Positions 1,411 to 64,000 of a stretch of 64,000 nt of DNA are shown piece by piece. A program made the position numbers and the translations under genes. The first letter of the stretch is position 1. The number at the start of each line of letters is the position of its first letter. Under the pieces are notes generated by a model. It searched no databases, had not been told where the DNA came from, and saw only the letters and a program-made list of their open reading frames with translations. Source of the stretch: Opitutales bacterium (GTDB lineage Bacteria > Verrucomicrobiota > Verrucomicrobiia > Opitutales > JABSRG01); the NCBI GenBank assembly GCA_051117635.1, contig JBNPEH010000029.1, forward strand, positions 53,861 to 117,860. The letters are read 5' to 3'.

Positions 1411-1449
1411 AGTGAACGGAAGCAGTGCTTGTGCCAGCGGGTCAGCGGT

Positions 1450-2901: not shown

Positions 2902-2908
2902 CAGGGAA

Positions 2909-44290: not shown

Positions 44291-44360
44291 CTAATCCCTT
44301 CCGGGCTTGACCCGGTGGCGCCGCTGATTTGTGTTCCTGCCTTTCCCAGACCCCGCTTTG

Positions 44361-44435
<75 letters not shown>

Positions 44436-44438
44436 TTT

Positions 44439-44482
44439 AAAAAAAAGCCCGTACCGGAAATTCCGTTACGGGCTTTTTTTTT
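44439..44482. terminator. Bidirectional intrinsic terminator
   Basis: A8-GCCCGTA...TACGGGC-T9. Confidence 0.85.
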
Positions 44483-44487
44483 CGGCG

Positions 44488-44775
44488 TCAACCGGCCATA
44501 CCGAGGTCGCGCAGGATAGTGCTGACGCCGTTGACCACGAACTGCACCGCCAGGGTGGCGACCAGGAGGCCGGCCAGCCGCTGGATGATTTTCAGGAGAA
44601 TCGGGCTCACCCACCCGGCGCCCTTGGCGGACAGCGCGAGGATGCCATAGCTGACCCCGCAGACGAGCAGGATGACCGCGTACACGATCGCATTCTGCAC
44701 CCAGTCCGCTGCCTCCCCCTGCAACAGCAGGACGAGACAGGTCACGCCGCAAGCAGGAGGAAACCAAAGCATCAA
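44488..44775 (-). pseudogene. MarC-family membrane protein, C-terminal half only
   Basis: KIIQRLAGLLVATLAVQFVVNGV is the MarC C-terminal signature; only about 95 aa present. Confidence 0.65.
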
Positions 44776-44834
44776 CCCGGCCTGCCTTCAACGGTTTGAC
44801 CTGAACCCCGGTTCCCAGGGCTCTGCCCCTCCCC

Positions 44835-45824: not shown

Positions 45825-45835
45825 CTTGTATCGAA

Positions 45836-47101: not shown

Positions 47102-48495
47102 GTGCGGGATCGTGCCAGATCGCCTTCTATGGCGATGACTTCACGGGCTCCACCGATGCGCTGGAGTGCCTCACCCGCGCCGGCCTTGACCCGATTCTCT
47201 TTCTGGAAGCGCCGACCCCCGAGCGCTGGAAAGCGTTTGCCGGCCGCGATGCCTTCGGGGTGGCGGGCCTCACCCGTTCCCTGCCGCCCGACCCGATGGC
47301 CGGGGAACTGACGCCCGCCTTCGAACGCATCCGGGCAATCGGTCCCCGGCACCTCCACTACAAGGTCTGCTCCACCTTTGATTCCTCGCCTGAAATCGGA
47401 AACATCGCCCGCGCCATCGCGGTCGGCCGGGCGATCTTTGAAAATCCGGTCACCCCGGTCGTGCCGCCGGTCCCGCACCTGGGTCGCTACTGTGCCTTCG
47501 GCAACCTCTTTGCCCGGCAGGCCATCAAAGACCGGGCCGACATTCACCGCCTGGACCGTCATCCCTCGATGCGGGACCACCCCACCACCCCGGCCCATGA
47601 AGCCGACCTCCGGCTTCACCTGGCCGCCCAGGGCACCTTCACCATGGGCCTGTTCGATCTCCTCGATCTGGCCAGACCCGCCGCACATCGGAAGGAACGG
47701 GTGCGGCGCTTCCGCACCGACGGCACCGAGGTGCTTTTTTTCGACGGCCTTTACCCGGAGCACATGCCGCGCATCGGCGAGGCGCTCGACGTCCTGGCCG
47801 AGGACCAGGCGACCCTCTTTTCGGTGGGGTCATCGGGGGTGGATACCGCGCTTGGCGAGCACTGGGCCGCCACGGACCAGGTGATTCCCCGGACCGACTG
47901 GCAACCGCTCAAGCCGGCCGGCACGGTCCTGGTGCTGGCTGGCAGCGTATCGCCGGTCACCGCCCGGCAGATTGAAACCGCGCGGGCAGCCGGGTTCGTG
48001 GACGTGCCCGTGGCGCCGGACGTCCTGGAGGATCCGGACCGGCGGGATGCCCGGATTGCCGAGTCCGCGGACCGGGTCGCCCGGGCCCTCAAGGGCGGCC
48101 GTAGCGTGCTGGTGCACACCTGCGAAGGCCCGAGCGACGAGCGCCTCCAGGCCTGCCGCCGGATCCTGGCCGGACAGGGACTGGACCAGGCGGGAATCCG
48201 GGGCGCGACTGCGACCCGGTTCGGCGAGGTCCTCGGCCGGATCGGTCGGGACGCCCTGGGCACCGCGGACGCCGGTCGCCTCATCGTGGCGGGTGGCGAC
48301 ACATCGAGCCGGGTGGCCCGGCACCTGGGCGTGGAAGCTGTCGAAATGACGACCCCGCTTTATCCCGGTGCTCCCTTGTGCCGCGCTCTGGCCCCCGACT
48401 CACCGGTGGACGGCATGGAACTCAATTTCAAAGGCGGCCAGGTCGGGGATGACCTCTACTTTGCCGCCCTGCTCGCCGGAAAGCGCCCTTCATGA
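47098..48495 (+). CDS. Four-carbon acid-sugar kinase (DUF1537 family)
   Basis: GDDFTGSTD, YKVCSTFDS, GS.S.VT..Q, AGGDTS, KGGQVG. Confidence 0.92.
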   Translation: MSAGSCQIAFYGDDFTGSTDALECLTRAGLDPILFLEAPTPERWKAFAGRDAFGVAGLTRSLPPDPMAGELTPAFERIRAIGPRHLHYKVCSTFDSSPEIGNIARAIAVGRAIFENPVTPVVPPVPHLGRYCAFGNLFARQAIKDRADIHRLDRHPSMRDHPTTPAHEADLRLHLAAQGTFTMGLFDLLDLARPAAHRKERVRRFRTDGTEVLFFDGLYPEHMPRIGEALDVLAEDQATLFSVGSSGVDTALGEHWAATDQVIPRTDWQPLKPAGTVLVLAGSVSPVTARQIETARAAGFVDVPVAPDVLEDPDRRDARIAESADRVARALKGGRSVLVHTCEGPSDERLQACRRILAGQGLDQAGIRGATATRFGEVLGRIGRDALGTADAGRLIVAGGDTSSRVARHLGVEAVEMTTPLYPGAPLCRALAPDSPVDGMELNFKGGQVGDDLYFAALLAGKRPS

Positions 48496-49151
48496 AAACA
48501 CTCGGCCTGCTCCACACCTCCGCGACCCTGGTTCCCGTCTTCAAGGAACTGTGTGCCCGGCACCTCGCCAACCGCGACCTCGCATACTTCAACCTCAGCG
48601 ACGACAGTCTTATCCAGACCGTCATCCGGGACGGCGCCTTGAGCCCGCTGACCCGGCGGCGCGTAGCGGAGCATATCCGCTCGCTCGTCGATGCCGGCGC
48701 CGATGTCGTGCTGGTCACCTGTTCATCCATCGGTCCCGCGGTCGACGAAGCCGCCCCCACGGTCGACATTCCCGTGCTCCGGGTCGACCGGCCCATGGCT
48801 GAGGCGGCCGTCGCCCGCGCCAGCCGGATCGGCGTGCTGGCTACCCTCACCACCACCCTCGCGCCGACGACCGACCTGATCCGGACGGTCGCCGCCGAGT
48901 CCGGCAAGGAGGTCCAGCTGCGGGACGAATGTGTGGCGGGTGCCTTCGATGCCCTGATGGCTGGCAACCCGCAAGAGCACGATGCGCGGGTGTCCGCCGC
49001 CCTCCGCGACCTGGCCCGGCACGTCGATGTCGTGGTGCTGGCCCAGGCCTCCATGGCCCGGGTGGCCGACCAACTGCCGGAGGGGGCGGTGGCGGTACCA
49101 GTATTGTCCAGTCCCGAGCGGGCGGTGCGTCACCTGGCCGAACACGGTTGA
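48492..49151 (+). CDS. Asp/Glu/hydantoin racemase-fold protein with a single catalytic Cys
   Basis: VTCSSIG, RVD.PMA, VLAT..TT, VLAQASMA, PVLSSP. Confidence 0.8.
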   Translation: MKTLGLLHTSATLVPVFKELCARHLANRDLAYFNLSDDSLIQTVIRDGALSPLTRRRVAEHIRSLVDAGADVVLVTCSSIGPAVDEAAPTVDIPVLRVDRPMAEAAVARASRIGVLATLTTTLAPTTDLIRTVAAESGKEVQLRDECVAGAFDALMAGNPQEHDARVSAALRDLARHVDVVVLAQASMARVADQLPEGAVAVPVLSSPERAVRHLAEHG

Positions 49152-49202
49152 GGCAGCCGGGTTATCATTGTCTCCCGGCTCAAAACGGAGAAGCTCGGGC
49201 TC

Positions 49203-50567
49203 ATGTCGGCCCGTCCAGGCATCATCTCCTGCCTGGGGTTCCTGCTCCTCGTTGGTTGCGGGGGTCCGTCGCCATCGAATCACGACGGGCGCACCGTCAT
49301 CCAGTATTGGGAAAAGTGGTCCGGCTTTGAGGCCCAGGCGATGGCCGAGCTGGTGGACCGCTTCAACCGGGAGCAAAACGCCATCCACGTCGAGTTTCTG
49401 TCCGTCAGTCAGATCGACCGGAAGCTCATGCTGGCGACCGCCGGGGGCAACCCGCCCGATGTCTGCGGGATGTGGGCCAACGAACTGCCCGCCCTCGCCG
49501 AGAACGGCGCCCTCACCCCACTCGACGGCCTGATGGCGCAGACCGGTCTCGACCCGGACCGCTACCTCGATGCGGTCCTGCGCAACATGACTTACCGCGG
49601 CCGGACCTGGGGTCTGCCGACCACACCCGCCGCCAGCGCACTGCACATCAACAGCCGGCTGGCCCGCGAGGCCGGCCTCGACCCCGACCACCCCCCGGAA
49701 ACCATCGCCGAACTGGAAGCCTGGAACGAGCGCCTGACCCGCCGCGACGACGATGGCCGCCTGGCGGTGCTCGGGCATATCCCGACCGAGCCGGGCTGGT
49801 GGCGGGACAGCTTCCCGCTGGCCTTCGGTGCCTCCTTCTGGAACCCGGCTGACGGCATGACGCTGCAGACGCCTGCCATGCGGGAGGCCTTCGCCTGGAT
49901 CGCGAGTTACCCGGAGCGCTTCGGGGCGGAGGCGCTGCGCGGCTGGTCGGATCTGGGCGGCCAGTTCGCCTCACCCCAGAATCCCTTTTTCCAGGGCCGG
50001 GTGGCGCTGGTCATGCAAGGGCCCTGGATGCACAATTTTATCGCTAAATTCGCGTCACCGGATTTTGAATACACGGTGGCGCCCTTTCCCGCGGCGGAAG
50101 ACAGCGGCCTCCCCTTCCTGACGCTGGTCGGGCTCGACGTCCTGGTCATTCCGCGCGGGGCGAAACACACGCGGGCCGCCTTTACCTTCATGCGCTGGGT
50201 GAATGAGCAACAGCAACTCGAGGCGCTGAACCGGGCCCACTTCAAGTTCAGCCCGCTCAGGGAAACGTCGGAGGACTATTATCCCGCGCACCCCAATCCG
50301 CACATCGCGCTGTTTGCCGGGCTGGCGGCACACCCCGAGGCACAGGTGGAGGCGCGGTTGCCGTCCTATCGTGCCTTTCGCAACGACATGAATCAGGCGG
50401 TGGACCAGGTCCTGTTCGGCGACATCAGCATCGACGAAGCCCTGGCCATGGTGCAGCGCCGGCAGGCCCGTCGGTTCGACCGCAACCGCGATCGCTGGGA
50501 ACAGGTGGGCCCGACCCGCACCGCCACCTGGGACCGGGTCGAACAGGCGGTATTGAAACAGCCATGA
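49203..50567 (+). CDS. Carbohydrate ABC transporter substrate-binding lipoprotein
   Basis: Lipobox LVGC; GNPPDV, F.QG.VA....GPW. Confidence 0.9.
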   Translation: MSARPGIISCLGFLLLVGCGGPSPSNHDGRTVIQYWEKWSGFEAQAMAELVDRFNREQNAIHVEFLSVSQIDRKLMLATAGGNPPDVCGMWANELPALAENGALTPLDGLMAQTGLDPDRYLDAVLRNMTYRGRTWGLPTTPAASALHINSRLAREAGLDPDHPPETIAELEAWNERLTRRDDDGRLAVLGHIPTEPGWWRDSFPLAFGASFWNPADGMTLQTPAMREAFAWIASYPERFGAEALRGWSDLGGQFASPQNPFFQGRVALVMQGPWMHNFIAKFASPDFEYTVAPFPAAEDSGLPFLTLVGLDVLVIPRGAKHTRAAFTFMRWVNEQQQLEALNRAHFKFSPLRETSEDYYPAHPNPHIALFAGLAAHPEAQVEARLPSYRAFRNDMNQAVDQVLFGDISIDEALAMVQRRQARRFDRNRDRWEQVGPTRTATWDRVEQAVLKQP

Positions 50568-51481
50568 CAGCCGGGGAACGCCAGCGCCTGAAACGCGGGC
50601 TCGCTTTTATCAGCCCCTGGCTGATCGGCTTCCTCGCCTTCAGCCTCTATCCGCTGATCGCGTCGTTTGCGTTTTCGCTGACCGACTACTCGGTGCTGGC
50701 CAAACCCGTCTGGATCGGGGCCGACAACTACAGCCTGATGCTGGAGGACGCCGTCTTCTGGAAGGCGGTCACCAACACGCTCATTTTTGCCGCACTGGCC
50801 ATCCCGATGAGCCTGATCATGGCCTTCCTGCTGGCCCTCCTGCTCAACGCGGGAGTCCCCGGGACCGGCCTGTTCCGTACGCTGTTCTTTCTGCCCTCGC
50901 TGGTGCCGCTGGTCTGCCTGGGCCTGCTCTGGCGCTGGCTCCTCAATGGTCAGGTCGGTCTGGTCAACCAGGGCCTGCAGCCGATCCTCGACGCCGTCAA
51001 CGCCGTGCTGGGTACCGGCCTGCAGGCACCCAACTGGCTGGTGGATCCGGCCTACGCCAAGCTGGGCCTGGTGCTGGCCGGGGTCTGGGGGTGCGGCCAC
51101 GCCATGGTGATTTTCCTGGCCGGGCTGCAGGACGTGCCGCGGCAGCTTTACGAAGCGGCAGACATCGACGGCGCAGGCTTCTGGCGAAAAACCTGGCACA
51201 TCACGCTGCCGATGGTCTCCCCGGTCATCTACTTCAACGGAATCATGGGCCTGATCGGCGCCTTTCAGGTCTTTGCGGTGCCCTTCGTGATGACCGCTGG
51301 CGGGGACGGCCCCGGCCGCAGCCTGCTCTTCCTCGCCACCTACATCTACCAGAACGCGTTTGAGTATTGGAATATGGGATACGCCTGCGCCATGGGGCTT
51401 GTGCTGTTCCTCCTTATCCTGGGCCTGACGCTGCTCGCAACCCGACTCCTTGAAAAGCATGTCCATTACGCCGGCCGCTGA
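50564..51481 (+). CDS. Carbohydrate ABC transporter permease
   Basis: FISPW..GF, G..NY, LYEAADIDGA (EAA motif), MGYACA. Confidence 0.93.
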   Translation: MTAGERQRLKRGLAFISPWLIGFLAFSLYPLIASFAFSLTDYSVLAKPVWIGADNYSLMLEDAVFWKAVTNTLIFAALAIPMSLIMAFLLALLLNAGVPGTGLFRTLFFLPSLVPLVCLGLLWRWLLNGQVGLVNQGLQPILDAVNAVLGTGLQAPNWLVDPAYAKLGLVLAGVWGCGHAMVIFLAGLQDVPRQLYEAADIDGAGFWRKTWHITLPMVSPVIYFNGIMGLIGAFQVFAVPFVMTAGGDGPGRSLLFLATYIYQNAFEYWNMGYACAMGLVLFLLILGLTLLATRLLEKHVHYAGR

Positions 51482-51570
51482 TGCACCTGAGGCACCGCCA
51501 AGCCGCAAAGAACGCCAAGGGTGCCGGGTAGCTGCGACCGAATGCAGACCGATCCCGACTCAGCACGAGC

Positions 51571-51632
51571 AACCGGAACCCCGAACCTAGAACCCAGAAC
51601 CCAGAACCTGTAACCCAAAACCTATAACCTAG
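51571..51632. repeat. Heptamer tandem repeat AACCNNN x9
   Basis: aaccgg aaccccg aacctag aacccag aacccag aacctgt aacccaa aacctat aacctag. Confidence 0.85.
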
Positions 51633-51644
51633 TACTTTCACCCC

Positions 51645-52478
51645 ATGTCCGCCAAACCGCCTCAAACCCTCCTGATTTACGGGCTGCTGGTGCTCGGGGC
51701 AGTGGTGTTTGCGGCACCCTTTTTCTGGATGGTGGTGACATCGCTGAAACCGCTCAGCCAGACGTTGTCGCTGCCGGTCCAGTGGCTGCCGGACGAGCCG
51801 CAGTGGCACAACTATCCGGACGCGCTCGAGGCCATCGGCCCCTTCTGGCGCTACACGGCCAACACGGTTTACCTCTGCCTGCTGACGGTGATCGGCACGG
51901 TCGCGTCCTCTGCCATCGCCGCCTACGGCTTCAGCCGCATCGAGTGGCCCGGACGCGACAAAGTCTTCATCCTGGTCCTGGCCACGATGATGATTCCCTT
52001 CCCGGTCATCATGGTACCGGTCTACACGCTGTTCAAAAGCCTGGGCTGGATCGGCAGTTTCAAACCGCTCTGGGTGCCGAGTTTCTTTGCCGCCGCCTTC
52101 AACGTGTTCCTGCTCCGCCAGTTCTTCCTGACCTTGCCGCGCGAACTGTCCGAGGCCGCCCGCATTGACGGCTGCTCGGAATGGCAGATTTTCTGGCGCG
52201 TCATCCTGCCCCTCGCCAGACCCGCCCTGCTGGTGGTCGCGCTCTTCCAGTTCATGGCGACCTGGAACGACTTCCTCGGGCCGCTCATCTACCTCACCGA
52301 CCAGGATGACTTCACGTTGGCGGTCGGCCTGCAGGCCTTCCAGACCCAGGGCGGCGGCACCGACTGGCATCACCTCATGGCCGCCTCCACCCTCGTTGTT
52401 CTGCCCGTGATCGTCCTGTTTTTCCTGGCCCAAAAAGCCTTCATCCAGGGCATCGCCACCACCGGCGGAAAGGGATAA
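51645..52478 (+). CDS. Carbohydrate ABC transporter permease
   Basis: ELSEAARIDG, WNDFLGPL, QKAFIQG. Confidence 0.93.
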   Translation: MSAKPPQTLLIYGLLVLGAVVFAAPFFWMVVTSLKPLSQTLSLPVQWLPDEPQWHNYPDALEAIGPFWRYTANTVYLCLLTVIGTVASSAIAAYGFSRIEWPGRDKVFILVLATMMIPFPVIMVPVYTLFKSLGWIGSFKPLWVPSFFAAAFNVFLLRQFFLTLPRELSEAARIDGCSEWQIFWRVILPLARPALLVVALFQFMATWNDFLGPLIYLTDQDDFTLAVGLQAFQTQGGGTDWHHLMAASTLVVLPVIVLFFLAQKAFIQGIATTGGKG

Positions 52479-52681
52479 ACCATGCCCTTCTCCCCCAGGC
52501 CCCTGATCCAGTCGGTCGGGAGCCGAGTTGGGCTGCCGGCTACGGTTTTTATTAAAATACTGCAAAGTCCCTGAGTCGCGCTGAGGCCTCACCCCAGGAA
52601 CCGAAGAGCCCAAGCAGACAGGATGGTAAGCGGCCCCCTTCACCGATTGCCAATCGCGGACTCACTGCGGATACTGCCACC

Positions 52682-53464
52682 ATGTCCACCTTCCGCCCCG
52701 GCCTCGTCTCCATCACCTTCAGGAAATTGTCCACCGATGCCATCATTGAGCTCTGTCAGGAAGCCGGGCTCGAGGGCATCGAATGGGGGGGCGATGTCCA
52801 TGTACCGCCCGGCGAAGGCAAAACCGCGTCTGAAGTCGGCAAGGCTACCCGGGACGCGGGCCTGAACGTCGCCGCCTACGGATCCTATTATCGCGCCGGC
52901 CCGGGGCTCCGGGATGAATCGAAGTTCGACGCCGTGCTCGAATCGGCGCGCATGCTGGGCGCCCCCTTGATCCGGGTCTGGGCCGGCCCCAGGCAACCGG
53001 TAGCCGAAGCGACCGAGCAGGACTGGAAGGACGCTTTCGAGGATGCCAAACGCATCGCGGCCCTGGCCGAGCCCTTGGGTATTCAGATCGCCTTCGAATA
53101 CCACGGCGGCACCCTCACCGAATGGCCGGAAACCGCCTCACGGCTCATGAGCGGCTGCGACCACCCGAACATCGATACGCTCTGGCAGCCCATCAACGGC
53201 GCACCCCTCGACACCAATCTCGACGCCCTGCACCGGGTGGGACCACGCATCGCCAACCTGCACGTCTTTCACTGGGGCGACGGCTCTCAGGACCGGTACG
53301 CTTTGGCAGCCGGTGAGGAACGCTGGAAGGCCTACCTCGAAGCGGTTGAACAGTATCCCCGGGACGGTCGCTGGGCCTTGCTCGAATTCGTCAAGGAGGA
53401 TGATCCCCGGCAATGCGTTGAAGACGCGGCCACCCTGCGCAGCTGGCTTGCCGGGCGGGCTTGA
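52682..53464 (+). CDS. Xylose-isomerase-like TIM-barrel sugar isomerase/epimerase
   Basis: IEWGGDVH, YGSYY, IRVWAG, EYHGGT, WQP, HVF, LLEFV. Confidence 0.85.
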   Translation: MSTFRPGLVSITFRKLSTDAIIELCQEAGLEGIEWGGDVHVPPGEGKTASEVGKATRDAGLNVAAYGSYYRAGPGLRDESKFDAVLESARMLGAPLIRVWAGPRQPVAEATEQDWKDAFEDAKRIAALAEPLGIQIAFEYHGGTLTEWPETASRLMSGCDHPNIDTLWQPINGAPLDTNLDALHRVGPRIANLHVFHWGDGSQDRYALAAGEERWKAYLEAVEQYPRDGRWALLEFVKEDDPRQCVEDAATLRSWLAGRA

Positions 53465-53561
53465 TGACCCGGCCATTGCAGATAAACACCCCACCAAAGG
53501 GGTGGGCGGAAAGGCTTGTAATCTGAGCGCGGAAGACCATAACCCTGACGTCGTGCAGATA

Positions 53562-53771
53562 ATGCAACGGTTTCTCCCTACCCTGTCGCAGGTCCGTGAG
53601 GCAGCCGATCAGTTGCCTGACGCCGAAACGTCAAAAACCGATGAGATGACGGTGAAGCTCAACGGCTCGGAGTCGAAGCGGACAATCACCTTTGAACGCG
53701 TGCCCTTCAAAAGCCGCACCCGCGGCCTGATCTTCCGTTGGGTCTACACCGGCAAGGTGATGGTGAAGTGA
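53562..53771 (+). CDS. Small hypothetical protein (69 aa)
   Basis: Coding-like ORF that fills the gap and converges on the deacetylase gene. Confidence 0.55.
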   Translation: MQRFLPTLSQVREAADQLPDAETSKTDEMTVKLNGSESKRTITFERVPFKSRTRGLIFRWVYTGKVMVK

Positions 53772-53775
53772 TACC

Positions 53776-54714
53776 TCAGCCGTTGAGCACCCGCAGGTGC
53801 TCGACGACGGAGGCGGGCATGGCCTCGAGGTGATAGCCGCCTTCGAGGAGCGAAACGATCCGGCCCTGGCAGTGCCTGTCAGCCAGCGCCATCACCCTTT
53901 CGGTCAGGCTACCGAAGTCGGCTTCAGTCAGGTTGACCTGCGCGAGCGGATCATCCCGGTGGGCATCGAATCCGGCTGAAATGAGAATGAGCTCGGGCTG
54001 AATGGATTCAGCGAAAGTAACCAACGATTGCTCGAAGACCCGTTGATAAACCGCTCCGTCCGAACCGGCGGAGACGGGAACATTCAGCGTAAAGCCTTCC
54101 CCGGGTCCGGACCCTGTTTCAGTCGCCGCTCCGGTGCCCGGGTAACAGGGATGCTGGTGAATGCTGAGAAAGCCGACCGAGGGATCGTCGTAAAACATCT
54201 CCTGCGTCCCGTTTCCGTGATGGACGTCCCAGTCGACAATCAGCACGCGTTTCAACTTGTAGTGCTGTTGTGCATACCGGGCGGCGATGGCGATGTTTCC
54301 GTAGAGACAAAAACCCATCGCGGTCATCGGCCGGGCGTGGTGGCCCGGCGGGCGCATGGCGGAAAAGGCGGCCCGTTGTCCGTCAGCCAGCACCGCGTCT
54401 ACCGCGGCCAGCGCGGCACCCGCCGTCACCCTGGCCGCCTCCGCGGATTGTTCGGCGATACGTGTGTCCCCGCCATCCAGGACCCGACGCCCGGCCGCCC
54501 AGGCACCGTCCACGAAATCGAGGTAATCGGGATCATGGACCGTCTCCAGCCAGCGACGGTCCGCGGCCTCAGGCTGTATCCGGAGCAGGTCTCCGGCAAA
54601 GGGTGCGCGCTCAATGGCGGGCATCAGGCGTTCGATGCGGGCCACCTGCTCGGGATGCCCCCCACCCGGTTGGTGCTTCAGGCAGATCGGATCGTGAATC
54701 AAGGCGACGGACAT
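53776..54714 (-). CDS. Histone-deacetylase-family amidohydrolase
   Basis: HPE...R, RPPGHHA, GFC, DWDVHHGNGTQ, SAGFDAH..DPL, LEGGY. Confidence 0.95.
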   Translation of the reverse strand: MSVALIHDPICLKHQPGGGHPEQVARIERLMPAIERAPFAGDLLRIQPEAADRRWLETVHDPDYLDFVDGAWAAGRRVLDGGDTRIAEQSAEAARVTAGAALAAVDAVLADGQRAAFSAMRPPGHHARPMTAMGFCLYGNIAIAARYAQQHYKLKRVLIVDWDVHHGNGTQEMFYDDPSVGFLSIHQHPCYPGTGAATETGSGPGEGFTLNVPVSAGSDGAVYQRVFEQSLVTFAESIQPELILISAGFDAHRDDPLAQVNLTEADFGSLTERVMALADRHCQGRIVSLLEGGYHLEAMPASVVEHLRVLNG

Positions 54715-54804
54715 GATTGCACCGTAGGAGCGCCCTGGAAACCTGTCACGGTTGTAGAAGAGGAGCTGATGCCGTTAAATGCCGGGCTTGGCGTGTCGGC
54801 CTGC

Positions 54805-54910
54805 CCGCCACTCCATGGAGACGCCGGCTCTTCCGCCTTCGCTCTTGAGCTGTGGCGGACAGGCCGGCCGGCGTTCGCGACTCCAGGAAGACTTTACAAA
54901 CACGCCTTAG
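54805..54910. mobile_element. Partial inverted copy of MITE family B
   Basis: CCCGCCACTCCATGGAGACGCCGGCTCTT...GGCCGGCGTTCGCGACTCC...CAAACACGCC matches the reverse complement of about 10335-10438. Confidence 0.75.
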
Positions 54911-55036
54911 CCCGAATTTCTCACCAGAATCGGAAAAATGGGCTACCTCACGAACGTGCATTTCAAAGAAATGCTTCAAGCCCTTCGGCCAGAATCACTT
55001 ACCGCCCATTTTTCCGATTCTGGTGAGAAATTCGGG
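54911..55036 (+). mobile_element. MITE family A, minimal 126-bp copy
   Basis: Perfect 33-bp TIR CCCGAATTTCTCACCAGAATCGGAAAAATGGGC; exact target duplication TTAG. Confidence 0.9.
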
Positions 55037-55459
55037 TTAGACCTCCACCACGAGCCATTCGCCGTCATGACTGACCGGGTACGTCTCTGCCTGCAGTTCC
55101 TCGGTTTCCCCGGCTTCGAGTGGGTCACCGGAGACCACATCGGTGGGATAACAGCGGGTCCGCACACGTCGGGGGTCAAACCAGGACCGACCGGTCTTGA
55201 TGTCGAACTCCCAGCCATGCCACGGACAGCGGATGATTTCTCCCGGCCGACCGAAAATGTAGGCACCCGGACGGTCGGCCTTCACCGCGCCGGTGAGTTT
55301 GCCCGAGCAGAGCGACGCCCCCTGGTGCGGACAGCTGTCTTTCAGGGCATAGAAGACGCCATCGACATTGAAAATACCGATGCGTCGCCCTTCGATTTCG
55401 ACGATCTTGCGTTCACCAGGAGCAATCTCCCCGGGCCGACCGATCACGTGGCGCGCCAT
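55037..55459 (-). CDS. Rieske [2Fe-2S] ferredoxin
   Basis: CPH...CPWH ligand motif. Confidence 0.93.
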   Translation of the reverse strand: MARHVIGRPGEIAPGERKIVEIEGRRIGIFNVDGVFYALKDSCPHQGASLCSGKLTGAVKADRPGAYIFGRPGEIIRCPWHGWEFDIKTGRSWFDPRRVRTRCYPTDVVSGDPLEAGETEELQAETYPVSHDGEWLVVEV

Positions 55460-55461
55460 GG

Positions 55462-56571
55462 TCAGGGTTGTTCCGGCAGCCCATACAACCGGCAGGCGTT
55501 CCGGTAAAAATAGGCGGCCTCCCGCCCGGCGGACAGGCGGACGGGGAAGGCCCGATCCGGTGCGTCGAAATCCCAGTGCGGATAGTCGGTGGCGAAGAGG
55601 ATCCGGTCATCCATGTCGAGGTGGTTCAGCATCTGGTCGAACTGATGCCGGTCGGGCGGTTCCTCCATCGGCTGGGTGGTGATCCAGAGATTGCTTCTGA
55701 CGTAAGAAGAGGGCGCACGCGTCAGCTCCGGCACTTCGGCCCGCATGGTTTTCCACAAGTGATCCATGCGCCAGCAAAGCGACGGCACCCAGGCCATCCC
55801 CCCCTCCATCAGGATCAACTGCAGGTCCGGCAGGCTCTCAAACACACCATTGAGAACGAGGCTGGCGACATGCGCCTGAAAGGCCTGCGCCATACCCCCG
55901 TGGTCCTCGACATAATAGGACGGCATGCCGGCCCCGGTTAGCGGATGAACCGAAGTTCCGCCGAAGTGAACCGCCACCGGGAGACCGTGGGCGGCGGCGG
56001 TTTCCAGGATCGGCCGGTATTTCAACCCGCCCAGCAACTCCTGGGAACGCACCAGCATCAACACCTGGACAAAGGCGGGATCGCCGGCGCGGCGCTCGAT
56101 TTCGGCGACCGCCTCCGCCGGATCCTCCTGATTGAGGGCTATGGAGGCACGCAACCGGGGTTCCGGCTCCAACAGGTGCTCGACCATCCAGCTGTTGGTG
56201 GCCGCCGCCAGGGCGGTACTGAAGCGCGGTTGAACCTGCCCACCGTAGTGGTTGATCGGATTTAAAATCCCCATTCGGATTTCCCACCGGTCGAGCAGTT
56301 GTTCGCGCATCCAGTCCAGGTCCGAGCCGGGCGGTCCTCCGGTCGGTGGCCAGGCGTCCACCCGGCAGGCGGCCGCATTGGCTTTCGGATAGGTGTGGCC
56401 GGTGAAGCGACGTGAGCCGATGGTCTCCAAATGCGTCCGCCAGCGCTCGGCAAGGTAGGGCTTGAGCGCGTCGAGGGACGGCGGAACCGGATGGATGTCG
56501 CAGTCGATCAGGCCGGATCGGGTACCGGTCTTTCGTGCCGAGCCGGGATGCGGGGCGGTGAGGGTCATCAC
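55462..56571 (-). CDS. Amidohydrolase_2-fold protein with intact metal ligands (AibH2-like)
   Basis: IDCDIH, VHFGG, YYVEDH, EGG..W, TTQPMEEP, TDYPHWDFD. Confidence 0.8.
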   Translation of the reverse strand: MMTLTAPHPGSARKTGTRSGLIDCDIHPVPPSLDALKPYLAERWRTHLETIGSRRFTGHTYPKANAAACRVDAWPPTGGPPGSDLDWMREQLLDRWEIRMGILNPINHYGGQVQPRFSTALAAATNSWMVEHLLEPEPRLRASIALNQEDPAEAVAEIERRAGDPAFVQVLMLVRSQELLGGLKYRPILETAAAHGLPVAVHFGGTSVHPLTGAGMPSYYVEDHGGMAQAFQAHVASLVLNGVFESLPDLQLILMEGGMAWVPSLCWRMDHLWKTMRAEVPELTRAPSSYVRSNLWITTQPMEEPPDRHQFDQMLNHLDMDDRILFATDYPHWDFDAPDRAFPVRLSAGREAAYFYRNACRLYGLPEQP

Positions 56572-56601
56572 AGGTCAGCTAAGGGTATCAGGGCCGCGGG
56601 A

Positions 56602-57654
56602 TCAATGATCGGCCGCGGGGGCAAACGCTCCCAGCCGGGGATACCAGGATCGGGCATTGGCGCCCGCGACGGTTTGACGGTCCGTCGGCACCAGACAGGC
56701 CGGCAACCAGCCGGCAGGGCGGGCGTAGTTCCTCGGCAGCGCGGACCCCCACAACAGGTTGTCCGCCTTCGCGGGCAGCTGGTGAATCAGCGACCGAACC
56801 GTTTCCTGATCGTCCGGACCGTCGAACGGGGTCGTAGTCAGGCGGATCCGGTCCCGGACATGCGCGGAGGGCGGATCCTGCACCCAGGGCGTATGCTGGC
56901 GGAGGCCTTTCCATTCCTTGTCGAAGCGCCAGCAGAGTGCCGGGAGCCAGGTCACGCCGGAGCCGGCCAGCACGACCCGCAGGTCCGGAATTTCGGCGAA
57001 GGCCCCTTCAAAGATCAGGCTGACGACCTGGGCCTGAAAGACGGAGGCGAAGTCGGTCACCTCCTCCATGTAGGTGGCCGGCCAGCCGCTGGGCGTCGGG
57101 GGATTGCCCGGGGAACCGCCGGGCGTGAGGCAGATGACCAGGCCCCGTGCCGCCGCGACGCGAAACAACGGCCAGTAGCGACGGTTGCCGTAGGGTTCCC
57201 GCGAACGGACCGGTAACTCGACCTGGACGAACCGCTCGTCGGCAGCCTGCTCTTCGACCAGCGGGGCAGCCATCTCCGGATGCTGGCTGGGCACCACCAG
57301 TGATCCGCGAAACCGGGAATCCATCGACAGCCAGGACTCGGCCAGCCAGGCATTGGCCGCCCGCGCGCTGGCCAGGGCCAGATCCGGCTGATGAATGCTT
57401 TCCGGGCGAAAGCCGGACCGGAGGATGGCGAGATCGGTGACCGTTCCGCTGTTCAGGTGGTCCGCCAACCAGGCCGCATCGAAAGATTTGGGTACATCTT
57501 CCCGCCAGCTGATGGCGGCCGTATCCGGAAAATCATCACAATCGGGACCCTGATAGCCCGATGTGTCGATATAGTCGACGAACGTGGCTGGCAGCCAGGG
57601 CTTGAGGTCGGCGTTGGCCGGCGTCGGGACCTGGATATCCGCGTCGATTCTCAT
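56602..57654 (-). CDS. Amidohydrolase_2-fold paralog with degenerate metal ligands (AibH1-like)
   Basis: IDADIQ (H to Q), TPGG in place of HxGG, WGSALPRN in place of DYPHWD; otherwise colinear with its neighbour. Confidence 0.75.
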   Translation of the reverse strand: MRIDADIQVPTPANADLKPWLPATFVDYIDTSGYQGPDCDDFPDTAAISWREDVPKSFDAAWLADHLNSGTVTDLAILRSGFRPESIHQPDLALASARAANAWLAESWLSMDSRFRGSLVVPSQHPEMAAPLVEEQAADERFVQVELPVRSREPYGNRRYWPLFRVAAARGLVICLTPGGSPGNPPTPSGWPATYMEEVTDFASVFQAQVVSLIFEGAFAEIPDLRVVLAGSGVTWLPALCWRFDKEWKGLRQHTPWVQDPPSAHVRDRIRLTTTPFDGPDDQETVRSLIHQLPAKADNLLWGSALPRNYARPAGWLPACLVPTDRQTVAGANARSWYPRLGAFAPAADH

Positions 57655-58976
57655 GCCTCGGATCCGACCGGTTCGGGCTCGGCGTCCGGGGAACCGTGGC
57701 CGCGGCGGTTGAAGCGCTCGTGGTCGAGCTTCCCTTCGGAGTTGGCGACGATGCAGCTGATCGAGGCGTCACCGGTGATGTTCACGGCCGTCCGGACCAT
57801 ATCGAGGAGGCGGTCCACCCCGAGCACCAGGCCGATCCCTTCGACCGGCAGCCCGACCTGGGTCAACACCATGCTGAGCATGATGAGGCCGACACCGGGG
57901 ACACCGGCCGTGCCGATGGAGGCGAGGGTCGCGGTCAGGATCACCATCAGGTAGTCGGTGATGCCGAGGCCCATGGTGTAGGCCTGGGCGATAAAGACGG
58001 TGGCGACACCCTGCATGATGGCGGTCCCATCCATATTGATCGTCGCGCCCAGGGGCACGGTGAAACTGGCGACCGATTTGTCGACCCCCAGCTCTTCTTC
58101 GCATACCTCCATCGTGACGGGAATGGTCGCGTTGCTGCTGGCGGTGGAAAAGGCGAAAATCTGGGCCTTGCGGATCTTGCCGATGAAACGGGAGGGCCGG
58201 AGACGGCCCAGCCCCTTGAGCAACAGGGGATAGGTCAGGAAGGCGTGCAGGATCAGAACACTCAGGACCAGAAAGAAGTACTTGGCCAGGGGCGCGATGG
58301 CGGAAAACCCCTCCTGCCCGAAGGTCCGCGCGATCAGCGCGAAGACACCGTAGGGCGCCAGCTCGATCAGGATCATCACCAGTTTCATGATGATGGCGTT
58401 AAGATCCCTGAAAATGCCGAGCACCCGCTGACCGGGATCGCCGGACAAGGTCATCGCGATGCCGAAGAGAATGGCGAAGACGATGATCTGAAGCATATTC
58501 CCCTCGGCCATCGCTTCGACCGGGTTGGTCGGAAAGATGTCGACGATCGTTTCGGTCAGGCTCGGGGCTTCCTTCCCCTCGAAGGTGACATCCGTGTCGA
58601 GCTGAAACCCGACACCCGGCTTGACCAGCACCGCCGCCGTCAGCGCCAGCGTGATCGCGACAGCCGTTGTGCCAAGGTACAACAGCAGGGTTTTCCCACC
58701 GACCCGGCCCAGACGGGCGATGTCGTCCAGCGCCGCCGTACCGCAGACCAGGGAGACGAACACCAGCGGCACGACCAGCAGCTTGAGCGCGGCCACGAAG
58801 ATGCGACCGACCACCTCCAAAATGCCGTCGGTCAGCCAGGCTCGGATCCAGCCCTCGTTCCCGATCAGATTGATGGCCACACCGAGGATCGCCCCGAGCG
58901 CCATCGCGATCAGGATGCGGCCGGTCAGGCTCAGCTTTTTCTTTTCAGGAGCCGGAGATGAGGAAGGATCAACCAT
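57651..58976 (-). CDS. Dicarboxylate/amino acid:cation symporter (DAACS)
   Basis: FSTASSNAT, GATINMDGT, GTAGVPG, DRLLDM.RT.VN.TGD. Confidence 0.95.
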   Translation of the reverse strand: MVDPSSSPAPEKKKLSLTGRILIAMALGAILGVAINLIGNEGWIRAWLTDGILEVVGRIFVAALKLLVVPLVFVSLVCGTAALDDIARLGRVGGKTLLLYLGTTAVAITLALTAAVLVKPGVGFQLDTDVTFEGKEAPSLTETIVDIFPTNPVEAMAEGNMLQIIVFAILFGIAMTLSGDPGQRVLGIFRDLNAIIMKLVMILIELAPYGVFALIARTFGQEGFSAIAPLAKYFFLVLSVLILHAFLTYPLLLKGLGRLRPSRFIGKIRKAQIFAFSTASSNATIPVTMEVCEEELGVDKSVASFTVPLGATINMDGTAIMQGVATVFIAQAYTMGLGITDYLMVILTATLASIGTAGVPGVGLIMLSMVLTQVGLPVEGIGLVLGVDRLLDMVRTAVNITGDASISCIVANSEGKLDHERFNRRGHGSPDAEPEPVGSEA

Positions 58977-59153
58977 GGAACCAGAAATTTCAGGTGCTAG
59001 ACGCCCGACCCGAGGCTGTCGAAGTCTAAGTGGTTTTAATGATTATGCCGTGGCTTCTTCGGGTTTGTTGAATCAACTATATTCCCTTTTAGCCCGGGCT
59101 CCCCATTGAAGCTCGTATGGATGAGCCGCCCCCGGATCAGACGGGGAGGCAGC

Positions 59154-59825
59154 CTACCGGTCCGGCACGAGTTGCCTCAAGGCCGGAACCGACAGGGCGG
59201 TCAATCGGTGAACGACCCGTTGCGCTCCCGAATCCGCCAGCTCGACCTCCGTGTTGGTCGTCGCCACGGCGACCACCGCCATGCCGCCCGCCAGCCCGGC
59301 TTCGATCCCGTGCGTGCTGTCCTCCAGAACAATGCAGTGCTCCGGCTTCGCGCCCGCCCGGTCCGCGGCAGTCAGAAATACCTCGGGATCGGGCTTCCCC
59401 CGGGACACGTCGTCCGCGCTCACAATCCCGCAAAAGGCATCCCGCAACCCCAGTACATCCAGAGCGACTTCCACATTGGCGCGCTCGGTGGACGTGGCGA
59501 TGACGGAGGGGACCCCCGCCGCCTGAAGGGCTTTCACAAGATCTGCCGCCCCCGGCAGGGCCCGGGGCTCGAACCCCGGCTCCCGCAGGATCTCGCGATA
59601 GATTGCCTCCTTGCGCCGGCCCAGACGCGCGACCTCCTCCGGATCGGTCGCCCAGGCCAGGATCTCGGGAATAATGACCTCGTTTTTCTTCCCGAAGCCG
59701 CGCTTGAAGTGCCCCTCGGGCAAGGCCTTGTCCAACTCCCGGGCCAGGCGTTCCCAGCTCAGTTCGTGCTGCCGGGAGGAATCGATGACGACCCCGTCCC
59801 AGTCCCAAAGTACGGCCCGATTCAT
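59154..59825 (-). CDS. HAD-superfamily phosphatase (beta-PGM-like)
   Basis: DWDGVVIDS, KPDP.VF, EDS..G. Confidence 0.9.
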   Translation of the reverse strand: MNRAVLWDWDGVVIDSSRQHELSWERLARELDKALPEGHFKRGFGKKNEVIIPEILAWATDPEEVARLGRRKEAIYREILREPGFEPRALPGAADLVKALQAAGVPSVIATSTERANVEVALDVLGLRDAFCGIVSADDVSRGKPDPEVFLTAADRAGAKPEHCIVLEDSTHGIEAGLAGGMAVVAVATTNTEVELADSGAQRVVHRLTALSVPALRQLVPDR

Positions 59826-59961
59826 GAGGCAAGGGGACCTCAGGAACCGGCTTGCAGCAAGCGGAAAGGCAGCGGATCAACGGGGAAAAATGGCATTGCA
59901 TGAGCCAGGGGACTAACCCTTAGTGATGCCCTTTGCTCGGGTCGGCTCGGGCAAGCCTGTC

Positions 59962-61161
59962 ATGATTATCAAACCGAAAGTCCGCGCTTTCATCTGTGTC
60001 ACCGCGCATCCGGAGGGATGCGCCGCCCACGTCCAGCAGCAGATCGATCGGGTTATCAGCCAGCAGCCGTTTGAAGACGGCCCGAAGAAGGTCCTGGTGA
60101 TCGGCGCCTCGACTGGATACGGCCTCGCCTCCCGCATCACGGCGGCGTTCGGCTACGGGGCCGACACCCTGGGCGTTTTCTTCGAGCGGCCCTCCCAAAA
60201 GGGGAAGCCGGCCTCGCCCGGCTGGTACAACACCGTCGCCTTCGAGCAGGCGGCGAAGAAGGAGGACCTGTACGCCGCCAGCATCAACGGCGATGCGTTT
60301 TCCGACGAAATCAAGCAGCAGACCGTCGAGAAAATCAAAGCCGACCTTGGCGAAGTGGATCTGGTCGTCTACTCGCTTGCCTCGCCTCGCCGCACCGATC
60401 CGGAAACCGGCCGAACCCACAAATCCGTCCTCAAGCCCATCGACCAGACCTATCGTCAGAAGAATCTGGATACAGACAGGAAAGAAATCAACGAAGTGAT
60501 GATCGAGCCCGCCACCGACGAGGAAATCGAAGACACGATCAAGGTGATGGGTGGCGAGGACTGGGAGCGCTGGATGAAGGCGTTGAAAGACGGCGGCGTC
60601 CTCGCCAAAGGCGCCAACGCCGTCGCTTACTCCTACATCGGCCCGGAGGTTACCTGGCCGATTTACAAGAACGGCACCATCGGCAAGGCCAAGGAGGATC
60701 TGGAACGGGCCGCGGCCGCCATCGACCGGGACCTGAAGGAGACCGGCGGGTTCGCCGTTGTCTCCGTCAACAAGGCGATCGTCAGCCAGGCCAGTTCGGC
60801 CATCCCCGTGGTCCCGCTCTACATTTCGCTCCTCTTCGACATTATGAAGGCGCGCGGCACGCATGAAGACTGCATCGAGCAGATGTGCCGCCTCTTCAAG
60901 GACCGCCTGTTCGCGGAGGGGCCCCTTGAGGTCGACGAGGGCGGACGGGTACGCGTCGATGACTGGGAAATGGATCCGGATGTTCAGGCGGAGGTCGCCA
61001 ACCGATGGCACCGGGTCTCCAACGACAATCTGGACGAACTCGCCGACTTCGCCGGTTATCAGGAAAACTTCCTCCGGCTCTTCGGCTTCGGCCTGCCGGG
61101 CGTCGACTACGATGCCGACGTCGACCCCGAGAGGGATATCCCTTCCCTGAAAGGGGAGTGA
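59962..61161 (+). CDS. fabV: Enoyl-ACP reductase / trans-2-enoyl-CoA reductase
   Basis: AHPEGC, GASTGYGLASR, YSLASP, KVMGGEDW, Y..GTIGKAK, TQASSAIP-like, FGF. Confidence 0.95.
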   Translation: MIIKPKVRAFICVTAHPEGCAAHVQQQIDRVISQQPFEDGPKKVLVIGASTGYGLASRITAAFGYGADTLGVFFERPSQKGKPASPGWYNTVAFEQAAKKEDLYAASINGDAFSDEIKQQTVEKIKADLGEVDLVVYSLASPRRTDPETGRTHKSVLKPIDQTYRQKNLDTDRKEINEVMIEPATDEEIEDTIKVMGGEDWERWMKALKDGGVLAKGANAVAYSYIGPEVTWPIYKNGTIGKAKEDLERAAAAIDRDLKETGGFAVVSVNKAIVSQASSAIPVVPLYISLLFDIMKARGTHEDCIEQMCRLFKDRLFAEGPLEVDEGGRVRVDDWEMDPDVQAEVANRWHRVSNDNLDELADFAGYQENFLRLFGFGLPGVDYDADVDPERDIPSLKGE

Positions 61162-61300
61162 CGAAGCTTAACCGCCAATCGGCTCTAACTGAATGAAGGG
61201 TCCGGATCGACTGCGGAGGATCATTCAACCATGCTCAATGAGTTAGGGGGTCGGCGTCATCTATGAGCGGCTTCCAACGATTAAATTAACGCCATCCGTC

Positions 61301-63346
61301 CTAAACGGTCTTTTCCAGGTCGCGGCTGCCGCTGAGTTGGATGACAGCCACGTCGCGGGCGTTGAGGTCGAGGCTGCCGCCGACCCGGTCGCCGGAAAGG
61401 AGATTCACCCCCGCCATGCTCTTCAGCTCGATGGTGTGTCGCCGATGCGTGTGATTGAGAAGGAACAGGAACCGGCCGTTTTCGCCGGAGCGCAGGGTCA
61501 CCTCCACCCCATCCGGTACGTCCAGGGGAGGGTGGATGTCCAACCGATCCAGGAGCGTGGCCAGAGCGCCCCGTAAAAAGCGGAAAGCGGGCTGGGTCGC
61601 CAGGTAGTAGGCCCGGCCTTGCCCGAATTCGTTAACGGTCAGGGCGGGACTGCCCGCCATGAGTTCCTCGCTGAAGATGCCGATGGCCCGGGCACCCTCG
61701 AGGTGGACCCGCTCGGCCATGTGGCTGCAGGCCACCTGGCTACCGTCATCGAGTTTCATGCCGATCTGGCGACCGTCCGGCGCGGGATCCCAGGCCTCCA
61801 CCCAGAGCCCGAACAAATCCTGAAGCAGGCCGGGGAACCCACCGAGGTGCAGATGATCATTACGGTCGACGATACCCGTGAACCAGGAAGACACCAGCAC
61901 CCCACCCGCCCTGACCCAGGCCTTCAGCTTGTCCGCCAGCGGTGCATCCATCATGTAGGCCATGGGCGCGATGATCAGTTTGTACCCGGCGAGGTCCTCG
62001 CCCGGAGACACGAAGGCCACGGGGGTATTCGTCTCAAAAAAGGCCTGGTGATAGGTCTTCAGCATGTCGGAATAGACCATCTGGCGGGGTTTGGACGGCG
62101 CTTCCACCCCCCACCAACTCTCCCAGTCCAGCAGAATGGCACACTCCGGCTCGATGAGGCTGCCGACCACCGGTTTCAGCTTCTTCAGCTCCGCGCCCAG
62201 CCCGGTCACCTCCTTCCAGATCCGGGATGGCCGGGGATGGACAGCCGGCACCATCGCGCCGTGAAACTTTTCACCACCGGCTTTCGATTGCCGCCACTGA
62301 AAAAAAAGCACCCCGTCGCCGCCGCGCGCGACTGCCTGCAGGCTCCAGAGCCGCAGGATGCCGGGGCGCTTGAGGTGATTGACCGGGCGCCAGTTCACCT
62401 GGGAGGTGACCTGCTCCATCAGAAAGAACGGACGGTCCTTCTTATAGCTGCGCGTGAGGTCATGCCCGAGGACCCCGGCATTCACGAGGTTGGCCAGAGG
62501 CAACTCCGGATCGGGATCGGGGTAGCTGTCCCAGCTGGCGACGTCGAGGTGCTCGCTCCAGACAAAGCCATTGACCGGTTTGTGCAGACCCATGAAATTG
62601 GTCGTGACCGGTATGTCCGGCGTGGCCGCGCGCAGGATCCCGGCCTCGTTCAGCATCAGCCGCATCAGCGCCTGGTCGTAGAACCGCTTGTAGTCCAGAT
62701 CCTGAGACGGATTGATAAAGGTCGGCGTCTTGCCGGGCGGCTGAATCTGCTCGAAATCCGTGTAGATCTGACTCCAGAAGGTGGTTCCCCAGGCCTCGTT
62801 CAGGGTCTCAATGGTACCGTATTTCTCTCGCAACCAACTGCGGAAGGCGCGGGCGTCCTCCTCGCCGAAAGAGAGGGGAACATGGCAGGCGTACTCATTG
62901 TTGATGTGCCACATCGCCAAGGCAGGATGATCCTTGTAGCGGTTGGCGATTGCCCGGACCAGCGCGGCGGCATGCTCCTGGTAGGCCCGGCTGTTGGCCG
63001 TGTAAGCCTGCCGGGACCCGTGCCGCCAGACCGTGCCGTCCTGATCGACGGGCAGGCTCTCCGGATGTTCCAGCCCCAGCCAGACCGGCGGTGAGGCAGT
63101 GGCAGTGGCCAGATCGGCGAATATTTCATTTTCGGCCAGCAGGTCCATGATCCGGTCCAGCCAGTCGAAGGTGAATTTGCCGGGAGCGGGGTTCAGGCGG
63201 GCCCAGCTGAAGATACCCACGCTGACAAGGTTCACCCCGGCCTCCTTCATCAACTGCACATCCTCCTTCCAGACAGCTTCCGGCCACTGCTCCGGGTTGT
63301 AGTCGGCACCATAAAATATCTCCGGGAGTTTCTGGGAAATCAGCAT
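61301..63346 (-). CDS. Beta-galactosidase, GH42
   Basis: [41 protein letters not shown]. Confidence 0.95.
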
Positions 63347-63489
63347 GGATACAGGCTTCGCCAAGCGCCGGCTTCAGGCCAGCCGAAAAGCCCCCTGCCG
63401 CGCATGGAAACGGTTGGCTTCAGATCCTGCAGGCCGCTTTTCGCCGTTGCGGGAATGCAGCGTGGGGATTACGCAACAGGGTTTCCGTC

Positions 63490-64000
63490 ATGACTGCAGA
63501 ATCCAACCGCCCGCCCGCCACACCCGCCGAGGCTTCGGACGCCAAGCCGAAGCACTTTATCCGCCAGATCATCGAGCAGGATGTTCAGGCGGGCAAGCAT
63601 GGCGGGCAGGTCATCACCCGGTTCCCGCCGGAGCCCAACGGCTACCTGCACATCGGGCACGCGAAGTCGATCTGCCTCAACTTCGGCATGGCGCAGGAAT
63701 TCGGCGGTCGCTGCCACCTGCGGTTCGACGACACCAACCCGACAGCCGAGGAAGTGGAGTATGTCGAATCGATCAAGGCTGACATCCGCTGGCTCGGTTT
63801 CGACTGGGGCGAGCACCTGTATTTTGCCTCCGATTATTTCGACCAGCTGTACGCCTTTGCGGAACAACTGATCGTGGACGGGAAAGCCTACGTGGACGAG
63901 TTGACCAGCGAGGAGATCCGGGCTTCCCGCGGCACGCCGACCGAGCCGGGTGAGCCCAGTCCGCACCGCGACCGAGATCCGGCGGCGAGCCTGGACCTGT
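63490..64000 (+). CDS. glnS: Glutaminyl-tRNA synthetase (runs off the window end)
   Basis: [30 protein letters not shown]; missing from the ORF track because there is no stop in the window. Confidence 0.95.

Follow-up and report, generated by a model that had tools for sequence, protein, structure and literature searches.

Amidohydrolase-related dinuclear oxygenases (AROs) form a young enzyme family that performs difficult C-H hydroxylations with Fe2 or Mn/Fe cofactors. A handful of members have been characterised, and the predicted family size in print has risen from 555 to 3,307 and then to about 17,000 (PMC10401708, PMC10811679, PMC13154177). An ARO is defined by a D-x-H motif on the first β strand at the N-terminus and a D-x-P-H-x-[D/E] motif towards the C-terminus, and the defining paper describes both motifs as absent in every characterised non-redox enzyme of PF04909 (PMC13154177). 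According to published analyses, ARO genes usually adjoin a Rieske ferredoxin gene without a reductase gene. The closest described system is AibH1H2, in which AibH1 holds one mononuclear metal through D24, H26, H201, E255 and D328 (PMC7782822); the role of such a helper has been described as elusive, and a structural part has been assigned to its metal, since mutants in the ligands are insoluble (PMC10401708, PMC12141560). A term search of the main text of PMC13154177 for heteromers, paralogs and transporters gave no hits. A related four-gene locus lies at positions 55037-58976 of a 64,000-nucleotide stretch of an Opitutales bacterium genome (contig JBNPEH010000029.1; the whole stretch is called the window here). 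Quite probably, this locus encodes a three-protein monooxygenase of the AibH1H2/AibG type within the ARO family, together with a symporter. The genes, the flanking elements and the protein names used below are as follows.

57651-58976, minus strand: DAACS (SDF) cation symporter P0004, Asp/Glu type, 441 aa; first gene of the apparent transcription unit
56602-57654, minus strand: AibH1-like auxiliary amidohydrolase-fold subunit P0003 with a degenerate metal site, 350 aa; best PDB match 6m1w_A
55462-56571, minus strand: AibH2-like catalytic ARO subunit P0002 with a full dinuclear site, 369 aa from GTG; best PDB match 6m1w_B
55037-55459, minus strand: small soluble Rieske [2Fe-2S] ferredoxin P0001, AibG-like, 140 aa; PF00355
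59042-59071, minus strand: putative sigma-70-like promoter (TCAACA, 18-nt spacer, CATAAT) upstream of the symporter start; a consensus match only
54908-55039, no strand assigned: dispersed inverted-repeat element with 36-nt arms, 97% complementary, and a 60-nt spacer

The catalytic subunit and its gene cassette

P0002 and P0003 were each compared with all PDB chain sequences, and metal ligands were mapped from the printed alignments. The best match of P0002 is AibH2 (6m1w_B; E 1.2e-86, 294.6 bits), followed by the four AROs of Liu et al. 2024 (8sm7 249.7, 8sm9 218.3, 8sm6 (SfbO) 218.2 and 8sm8 201 bits), with PtmU3 at 54.7 bits and the decarboxylases at no more than 43.1 bits. P0002 D25, H27, H202, E256, D329 and H332 align on AibH2 D25, H27, H211, E265, D337 and H340, that is, six of six dinuclear ligands are kept (residue lists for AibH2 as given in PMC7782822 and PMC10401708). 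H202 and E256 among them supply the remaining M1 ligands, a His and the bridging Glu, and D334 aligns on the second-sphere D342. The N-terminal motif is D25-I26-H27, whose columns are invariant in 62 homologs, and the C-terminal motif is D329-Y-P-H332-W-D334, with at least about 200 residues ahead of it. Because all six ligands and both ARO motifs are kept, P0002 is judged to be neither a decarboxylase nor a hydratase.

A preliminary description of this DNA, made from the letters alone, had taken P0002 for an oxygenase rather than a hydrolase, and the distance in score between AibH2 and the decarboxylases, the presence of both motifs and of the second-metal ligands, and the lack of clustering with decarboxylases or hydratases bear this out. 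From its ligand set, DxH, H and DYPHWD stand; the ExH (E222-D-H224) that it also listed is a conserved motif outside the six ligands, among which the Glu is E256. Its picture of an uncharacterised hydroxylase was right in the core family assignment, which is not new, the family being much better described in print than it had supposed, at about 17,000 predicted members (PMC13154177).

The published rules for γ1, γ4, γ5 and the metal classes (PMC13154177) can be applied to the same alignment. P0002 has Ile26 (hydrophobic) at γ1 and Trp333 (aromatic) at γ4, the pattern of Mn-dependent L-AROs, and Phe335 at γ5, which matches the position proposed in that paper for Rieske docking. By these sequence rules the site is probably low-potential and Mn-containing (Mn/Fe), a class read from γ1 and γ4, two of the three published criteria, of which the third is a hydrophilic γ2 at the end of the second β strand. 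The oxygenase activity of P0002 and the identity of its metals are predicted from these features. No NCBIfam model names P0002 or P0003.

The homology, ligands, motifs, gene order and synteny reported here are observations, and a mechanism can be proposed around them. The two-metal site of P0002 would be reduced, bind O2 and hydroxylate a C-H bond of a small polar metabolite, with electrons coming singly from the adjacent Rieske ferredoxin P0001, which would in turn be reduced by an enzyme encoded elsewhere. P0003 would be an AibH1-type helper that pairs with P0002, probably in an (αβ)2 heterotetramer, and that, its structural metal site lost, may serve as a metal-free scaffold. The cassette stands directly behind a lineage-conserved Asp/Glu-type symporter gene, with which it is probably co-transcribed.

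All four open reading frames (ORFs) are intact and on the minus strand, and to judge by their homology they are real genes, chance ORFs being excluded. The Pfam scores are 430.5 bits for the symporter (SDF, PF00375), 72 for P0003 and 143.6 for P0002 (Amidohydro_2, PF04909; profile positions 1-289 in P0002) and 58.1 for P0001 (Rieske, PF00355), whose translation carries C43-P-H45 and C78-P-W-H81. The symporter gene ends and the P0003 gene begins within one ATGA at 57651-57654, a 4-bp overlap; P0003 and P0002 are 30 bp apart with the GTG start of P0002 and 33 bp apart with the ATG start at 56568, with which the 368-aa database record of P0002 (P0124) is consistent; and 2 bp separate the P0002 stop from the Rieske ATG. 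The layout is thus the one first described: four minus-strand genes, the ATGA overlap, and gaps of 30 and 2 bp. The start/stop overlap argues for co-transcription of the symporter with the oxygenase cassette, which is probable on the strength of the gene layout. The sigma-70-like site is weak evidence, because two such matches were observed in the scanned region against 1.2 expected.

The inverted repeat at 54908-55039 overlaps the Rieske gene by three bases, those of its stop codon, and probably marks the 3' end of the operon. Many copies of it, at about 74-97% identity and roughly 115-135 bp long, occur on most contigs of the genome, and it looks like a miniature inverted-repeat transposable element (MITE) or an element of the repetitive extragenic palindrome (REP) type. 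Base composition does not mark the cassette as foreign: its GC content is 0.62-0.67 and that at third codon positions (GC3) 0.70-0.80, with 0.632 for the genome GC and 0.78-0.87 for GC3 of neighbouring genes, values that are not decisive.

The AibH1-like helper subunit

The best PDB match of P0003 is AibH1 (6m1w_A; E 1.8e-50, 175.4 bits). At the five site-0 columns of AibH1 it has D6, Q8, T177, G231 and A305, so that one of the five ligands is kept; R308 sits where AibH1 has H331, and Y310 occupies the column of the second-sphere D334 of P0002. The loss of ligands in the second paralog, which had been noticed at the outset, is thereby confirmed residue by residue.

The extent of this loss was set against two samples. 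A scan of genome contigs gave 78 related loci from 598 confirmed matches, some of the loci being cut by contig ends. Of their 153 amidohydrolase ORFs of at least 300 aa, 89 show the full catalytic pattern, 63 are helper-type and one is of another kind. D, H, E and D are kept in 63 of the 63 helper-type ORFs, and 18 of these have Q, N, Y or S as third ligand. The second sample consists of 119 nearest homologs of P0003, drawn from 5.8 billion protein clusters, which at the five ligand columns are distributed as follows.

All five ligands kept: 83
One ligand lost: 18
Two ligands lost: 9
Gapped at one or more columns: 9
More than two ligands clearly lost: 0

A loss as deep as that of P0003 was found in none of the 63 helper ORFs and in none of the 119 homologs, and the degree of ligand loss is exceptional. 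P0003 stands alone in its cluster, and nothing among the 5.8 billion clusters exceeds 47% identity to it. Literature searches on AibH1H2, AibH2 and AROs (supplements outside the search) returned no paper on a ligand-less helper.

The rest of the protein is well preserved. The 350-codon frame is intact, the homolog alignment spans residues 3-338, and the C-terminal helix motif is kept. At columns that are at least 90% conserved in 61 homologs, P0003 keeps 28 of 29 residues in the predicted interface and 61 of 83 elsewhere (Fisher p = 0.007), and the mismatches outside the interface include four metal-site positions, H8Q, E231G, D305A and H308R. A reading of the short N-terminus as the scar of a fusion was rejected, several homologs likewise having just 1-3 residues ahead of the first strand.

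Modelling of P0002 with P0003 gave a complex with ipSAE 0.91 in three of three runs, the best of three controls scoring 0.00, with at least 95% of contacts agreeing between runs and a partner pLDDT of 91. Of 157 solved complexes, 116 attain this mark, as do 2 of 215 mismatched pairs; a pass may here reflect memory, because the AibH1H2 structure is already solved. The model displays likeness to the AibH1H2 complex rather than binding of P0002 to P0003, and formation of the heterocomplex is a prediction from it.

Related loci, the symporter and electron supply

The best related locus is 55% identical, and the related loci come from Chloroflexota, Poribacteria, Gemmatimonadota, Actinomycetota, Alphaproteobacteria and other groups. 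A helper-type paralog is present in 60 of the 78, a Rieske gene in 59 and both in 51, and in 54 the helper gene lies immediately upstream of the catalytic gene, the order of P0003 and P0002. With AibH1 and AibH2 as the best PDB matches, this recurrence upholds the AibH1H2/AibG architecture that was proposed in the preliminary description. Flanking genes were scanned in 28 of the 78 loci (114 ORFs) and are heterogeneous, with M20 or M81 peptidases, class-III aminotransferases and PALP enzymes, and with transporters of the MFS, ABC, SSF and NhaC types. No ferredoxin reductase and no DAACS symporter occur among these 114 ORFs. An attempt to read the substrate from these neighbours failed, the 28 flank sets sharing no pathway. 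The heterogeneity agrees with the figures of Powell et al., who report co-occurrence of AibH2-like genes with a Rieske gene in about 90% and with a permease in about 40% of cases, and few other common neighbours (PMC10401708). A PhyH-family (phytanoyl-CoA dioxygenase-like) gene lies within 3 kb of the AibH1H2-type cassette in nine of the 28 loci (L001, L004, L007, L013, L019, L020, L022, L025 and L028).

The best PDB match of the symporter is 9bgz, 'Aspartate transporter' (E 1.3e-114), and its stretch D392-M-V-R395-T396..N399..D403 resembles that of 9bgz, DMARTTVNVTGD. By analogy with GltPh, D392, R395, T396, N399 and D403 presumably bind the amino group and the distal carboxylate. The protein scores below the NCBIfam GltP cut-off (275.3 against 638).

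The symporter and P0002 were each searched in 41 genomes, 40 relatives and the window's own, with a threshold of E 1e-20 for P0002. The symporter has a match in 25 of the 41, its orthologs in relatives being 58-71% identical, and seven matches at 61-71% identity fall in six genomes (G005, G004, G019, G001 twice, G022 and G010). P0002 has a match in just five (G000, G002, G023, G030 and G037), and none of the six genomes with a 61-71% symporter is among them. By tblastn, the block at window positions 57651-61161 recurs as FabV-HAD-symporter in G004 and G001 and as FabV-symporter in G019, and the genes downstream of the symporter vary between relatives (UvrB, glutamate dehydrogenase, histidine kinase and others). 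Because the FabV block is kept in relatives without an ARO match, the symporter is taken as an inherited resident gene, and the cassette lies beyond a synteny break. Among the genomes compared, only this one has the two side by side.

The genome is 97.7% complete. It has only two matches to PF00175 (NAD_binding_1), on contigs C46 and C8, both in CysJ-like diflavin proteins (Flavodoxin_1, FAD_binding_1 and NAD_binding_1), and three to PF00111 (Fer2), which lie at other places. Two further ARO-Rieske pairs are encoded, both without an AibH1-like helper.

G000:C46:229006-230549 (L090 7006-8549), minus strand: second ARO-Rieske pair
G000:C46:275682-277388 (L091 5683-7389), plus strand: third ARO-Rieske pair

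Both of these AROs carry D-C-D-I-H and D-F-P-H-[W/F]-D-F, and their neighbourhoods are of the carbohydrate type: one pair adjoins a pectate-lyase-like gene and a pyrroline-5-carboxylate (P5C) reductase gene, and the other has ABC sugar-transporter genes nearby and a LacI-family gene about 1.8 kb away. About 6 kb from the third pair, one of the CysJ-like diflavin reductases, of 724 aa with an N-terminal extension of about 175 residues, is encoded at G000:C46:283502-285676 (L091 13502-15676). It is a candidate electron donor for the Rieske ferredoxins.

Two other features of the window lie apart from the cassette. A histone-deacetylase-family gene (PF00850, 321 bits; 53776-54714, minus strand) lies 322 bp downstream of the Rieske gene; it was rejected as a member of the system, in view of this separation, which includes the dispersed repeat, and of the absence of Hist_deacetyl matches in the 114 flank ORFs. 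At 45512-49151 there is a row of RuBisCO-like, four-carbon-acid-sugar-kinase-type (SBD_N and NBD_C) and Asp/Glu-racemase-family genes, adjoined by a GH43 gene and an ABC sugar transporter, which looks like a sugar-acid catabolic cluster.

Competing explanations and comparison with known systems

Several findings weigh against the reading of the locus as a complete and working AibH1H2/AibG-type monooxygenase. As the preliminary description had said of the operon, a reductase and downstream catabolic genes are missing: window positions 44000-64000 contain no AibF-type reductase, AibT-type permease or aib catabolic gene. Reductase_C (PF14759) has no match in the genome, and searches with PF14759, PF00175 and PF00111 found no dedicated reductase and no AibF-type protein there. 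The metal class is read from two of its three published criteria, and the complex prediction may echo the solved AibH1H2 structure. P0003 has diverged 6.3 percentage points more than expected from the divergence of its partner, the largest deficit among 55 loci, and its tip branch is 1.34 substitutions per site long against a median of 0.18, so that relaxed constraint or decay may be at work. A helper without ligands might also be unstable, because metal-ligand mutants of AibH1 yield insoluble protein (PMC10401708). Finally, the link between symporter and substrate is weak, because the FabV-HAD-symporter block occurs without an ARO and none of the 78 related ARO loci carries a DAACS gene.

The divergence of P0003 and its loss of four of five metal ligands would also suit a decaying relic, with the AibH2-like protein acting alone as a homo-oligomer with the Rieske protein, as SfbO does. 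Helper-free AROs do exist, SfbO crystallising as a tetramer and PtmU3 working without a helper (PMC13154177, PMC10401708), and the two other AROs of this genome are likewise helper-free. Such a relic is nevertheless improbable, since its frame is unbroken and aligned nearly end to end, the conserved interface and the C-terminal helix motif are retained, the complex model stands far above its controls, and the gene still overlaps the symporter stop and lies 30 bp upstream of the AibH2-like gene. A different doubt would make P0002 and P0003 ordinary non-redox Amidohydro_2 enzymes (decarboxylase, hydratase or lactonase), in keeping with their common place in PF04909 and with the silence of NCBIfam on both; the low decarboxylase scores, the two motifs foreign to characterised non-redox members (PMC13154177) and the adjacent Rieske ferredoxin, for which a hydrolase has no role, make this very hard to credit.

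A dedicated unit of uptake and hydroxylation, in which an acidic amino acid or dicarboxylate taken up by the symporter serves the oxygenase as substrate, has more to recommend it and is still doubtful. In its favour, translational coupling is suggested by the ATGA overlap, and the Asp/Arg/Thr/Asn/Asp stretch known from a solved aspartate transporter is intact in the symporter. AibH1H2 itself has an amino acid for its substrate, a permease, AibT, belongs to the aib cluster (PMC7782822), and permeases lie near a considerable share of AibH2-like genes (PMC10401708). These points are offset by the symporter blocks in genomes without an ARO match, by the variable genes downstream of the symporter in relatives, by the MFS, ABC, SSF and NhaC-type transporters that lie near the scanned ARO loci instead, and by the absence of a downstream catabolic gene. 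The proposal in the preliminary description that the coupled symporter brings in the substrate fares poorly on the same grounds: the symporter is vertically conserved in relatives without an ARO match, and the neighbourhood comparison that it had called for places a DAACS symporter in 0 of 78 related loci.

The AibH1H2/AibG-type monooxygenase thus remains the preferred reading, with an amino-acid-like small molecule as the best guess for its substrate. An acidic amino acid delivered by the symporter is a tentative choice, with the larger share of probability lying elsewhere. Hydroxylation of an acidic amino acid at a Mn/Fe cofactor is not yet known from any ARO. That P0003 is a natural, functional, metal-free scaffold, the helper metal being dispensable, and that the cassette was captured behind the symporter as a Mn/Fe hydroxylase of an acidic amino acid, is as a combined claim unlikely; replacement of the metal by a side-chain contact such as Arg308-Asp6 is speculation. 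A natural helper that has shed four of five ligands and kept its interface would allow the need of the helper for its metal to be tested directly, and a functional metal-free P0003 would show the 'structural' metal to be dispensable. Otherwise the locus is mainly of use for re-annotation, as "putative dinuclear oxygenase" in place of "amidohydrolase", in a genome that carries three such systems.

Non-redox PF04909 enzymes (LigW, γ-resorcylate decarboxylase, ACMSD and LigJ) are mononuclear or metal-free and lack both ARO motifs, whereas P0002 has both and scores no more than 43.1 bits against them. The symporter shares the SDF fold and the NMDGT, HP1, HP2 and DMxRT..N..GD stretches with archaeal and bacterial aspartate transporters of the GltPh/GltTk type (PDB 9bgz, 5dwy and 1xfh). 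Here, by contrast, the symporter stop codon falls within the ATGA that starts an oxygenase helper gene. P0002 has in common with the AROs SfbO, D3EI84, W7L2Y2, B6JH23, PtmU3 and DitZ (PMC10811679, PMC13154177) the PF04909 fold, both motifs and a Rieske neighbour, and it follows the L-ARO pattern at γ1, γ4 and γ5. Those characterised AROs work without an AibH1-like helper, the other solved AROs are matched at 201-250 bits against 294.6 for AibH2, and PtmU3 and DitZ are high-potential diiron enzymes.

The nearest system remains AibH1H2/AibG/AibF, the 2-aminoisobutyrate monooxygenase of Rhodococcus wratislaviensis (PDB 6M1W, 8FUL-8FUO). The locus departs from it in a helper that keeps one of the five site-0 ligands of AibH1, in the DAACS symporter gene upstream, and in the want of AibF-type reductase, AibT-type permease and aib catabolic genes over the interval searched. 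The same substrate is not implied, because the alignment of P0002 with AibH2 is only partly identical; a reading of the substrate from AibH2 residues was given up, the Hibi paper giving a pocket volume and no contact residues. The two systems share the gene order of helper, catalytic subunit and Rieske ferredoxin; both amidohydrolase-fold proteins find their best PDB match in AibH1H2; a heterocomplex is predicted here too; and the dinuclear ligand set, together with the second-sphere Asp, is identical in P0002.

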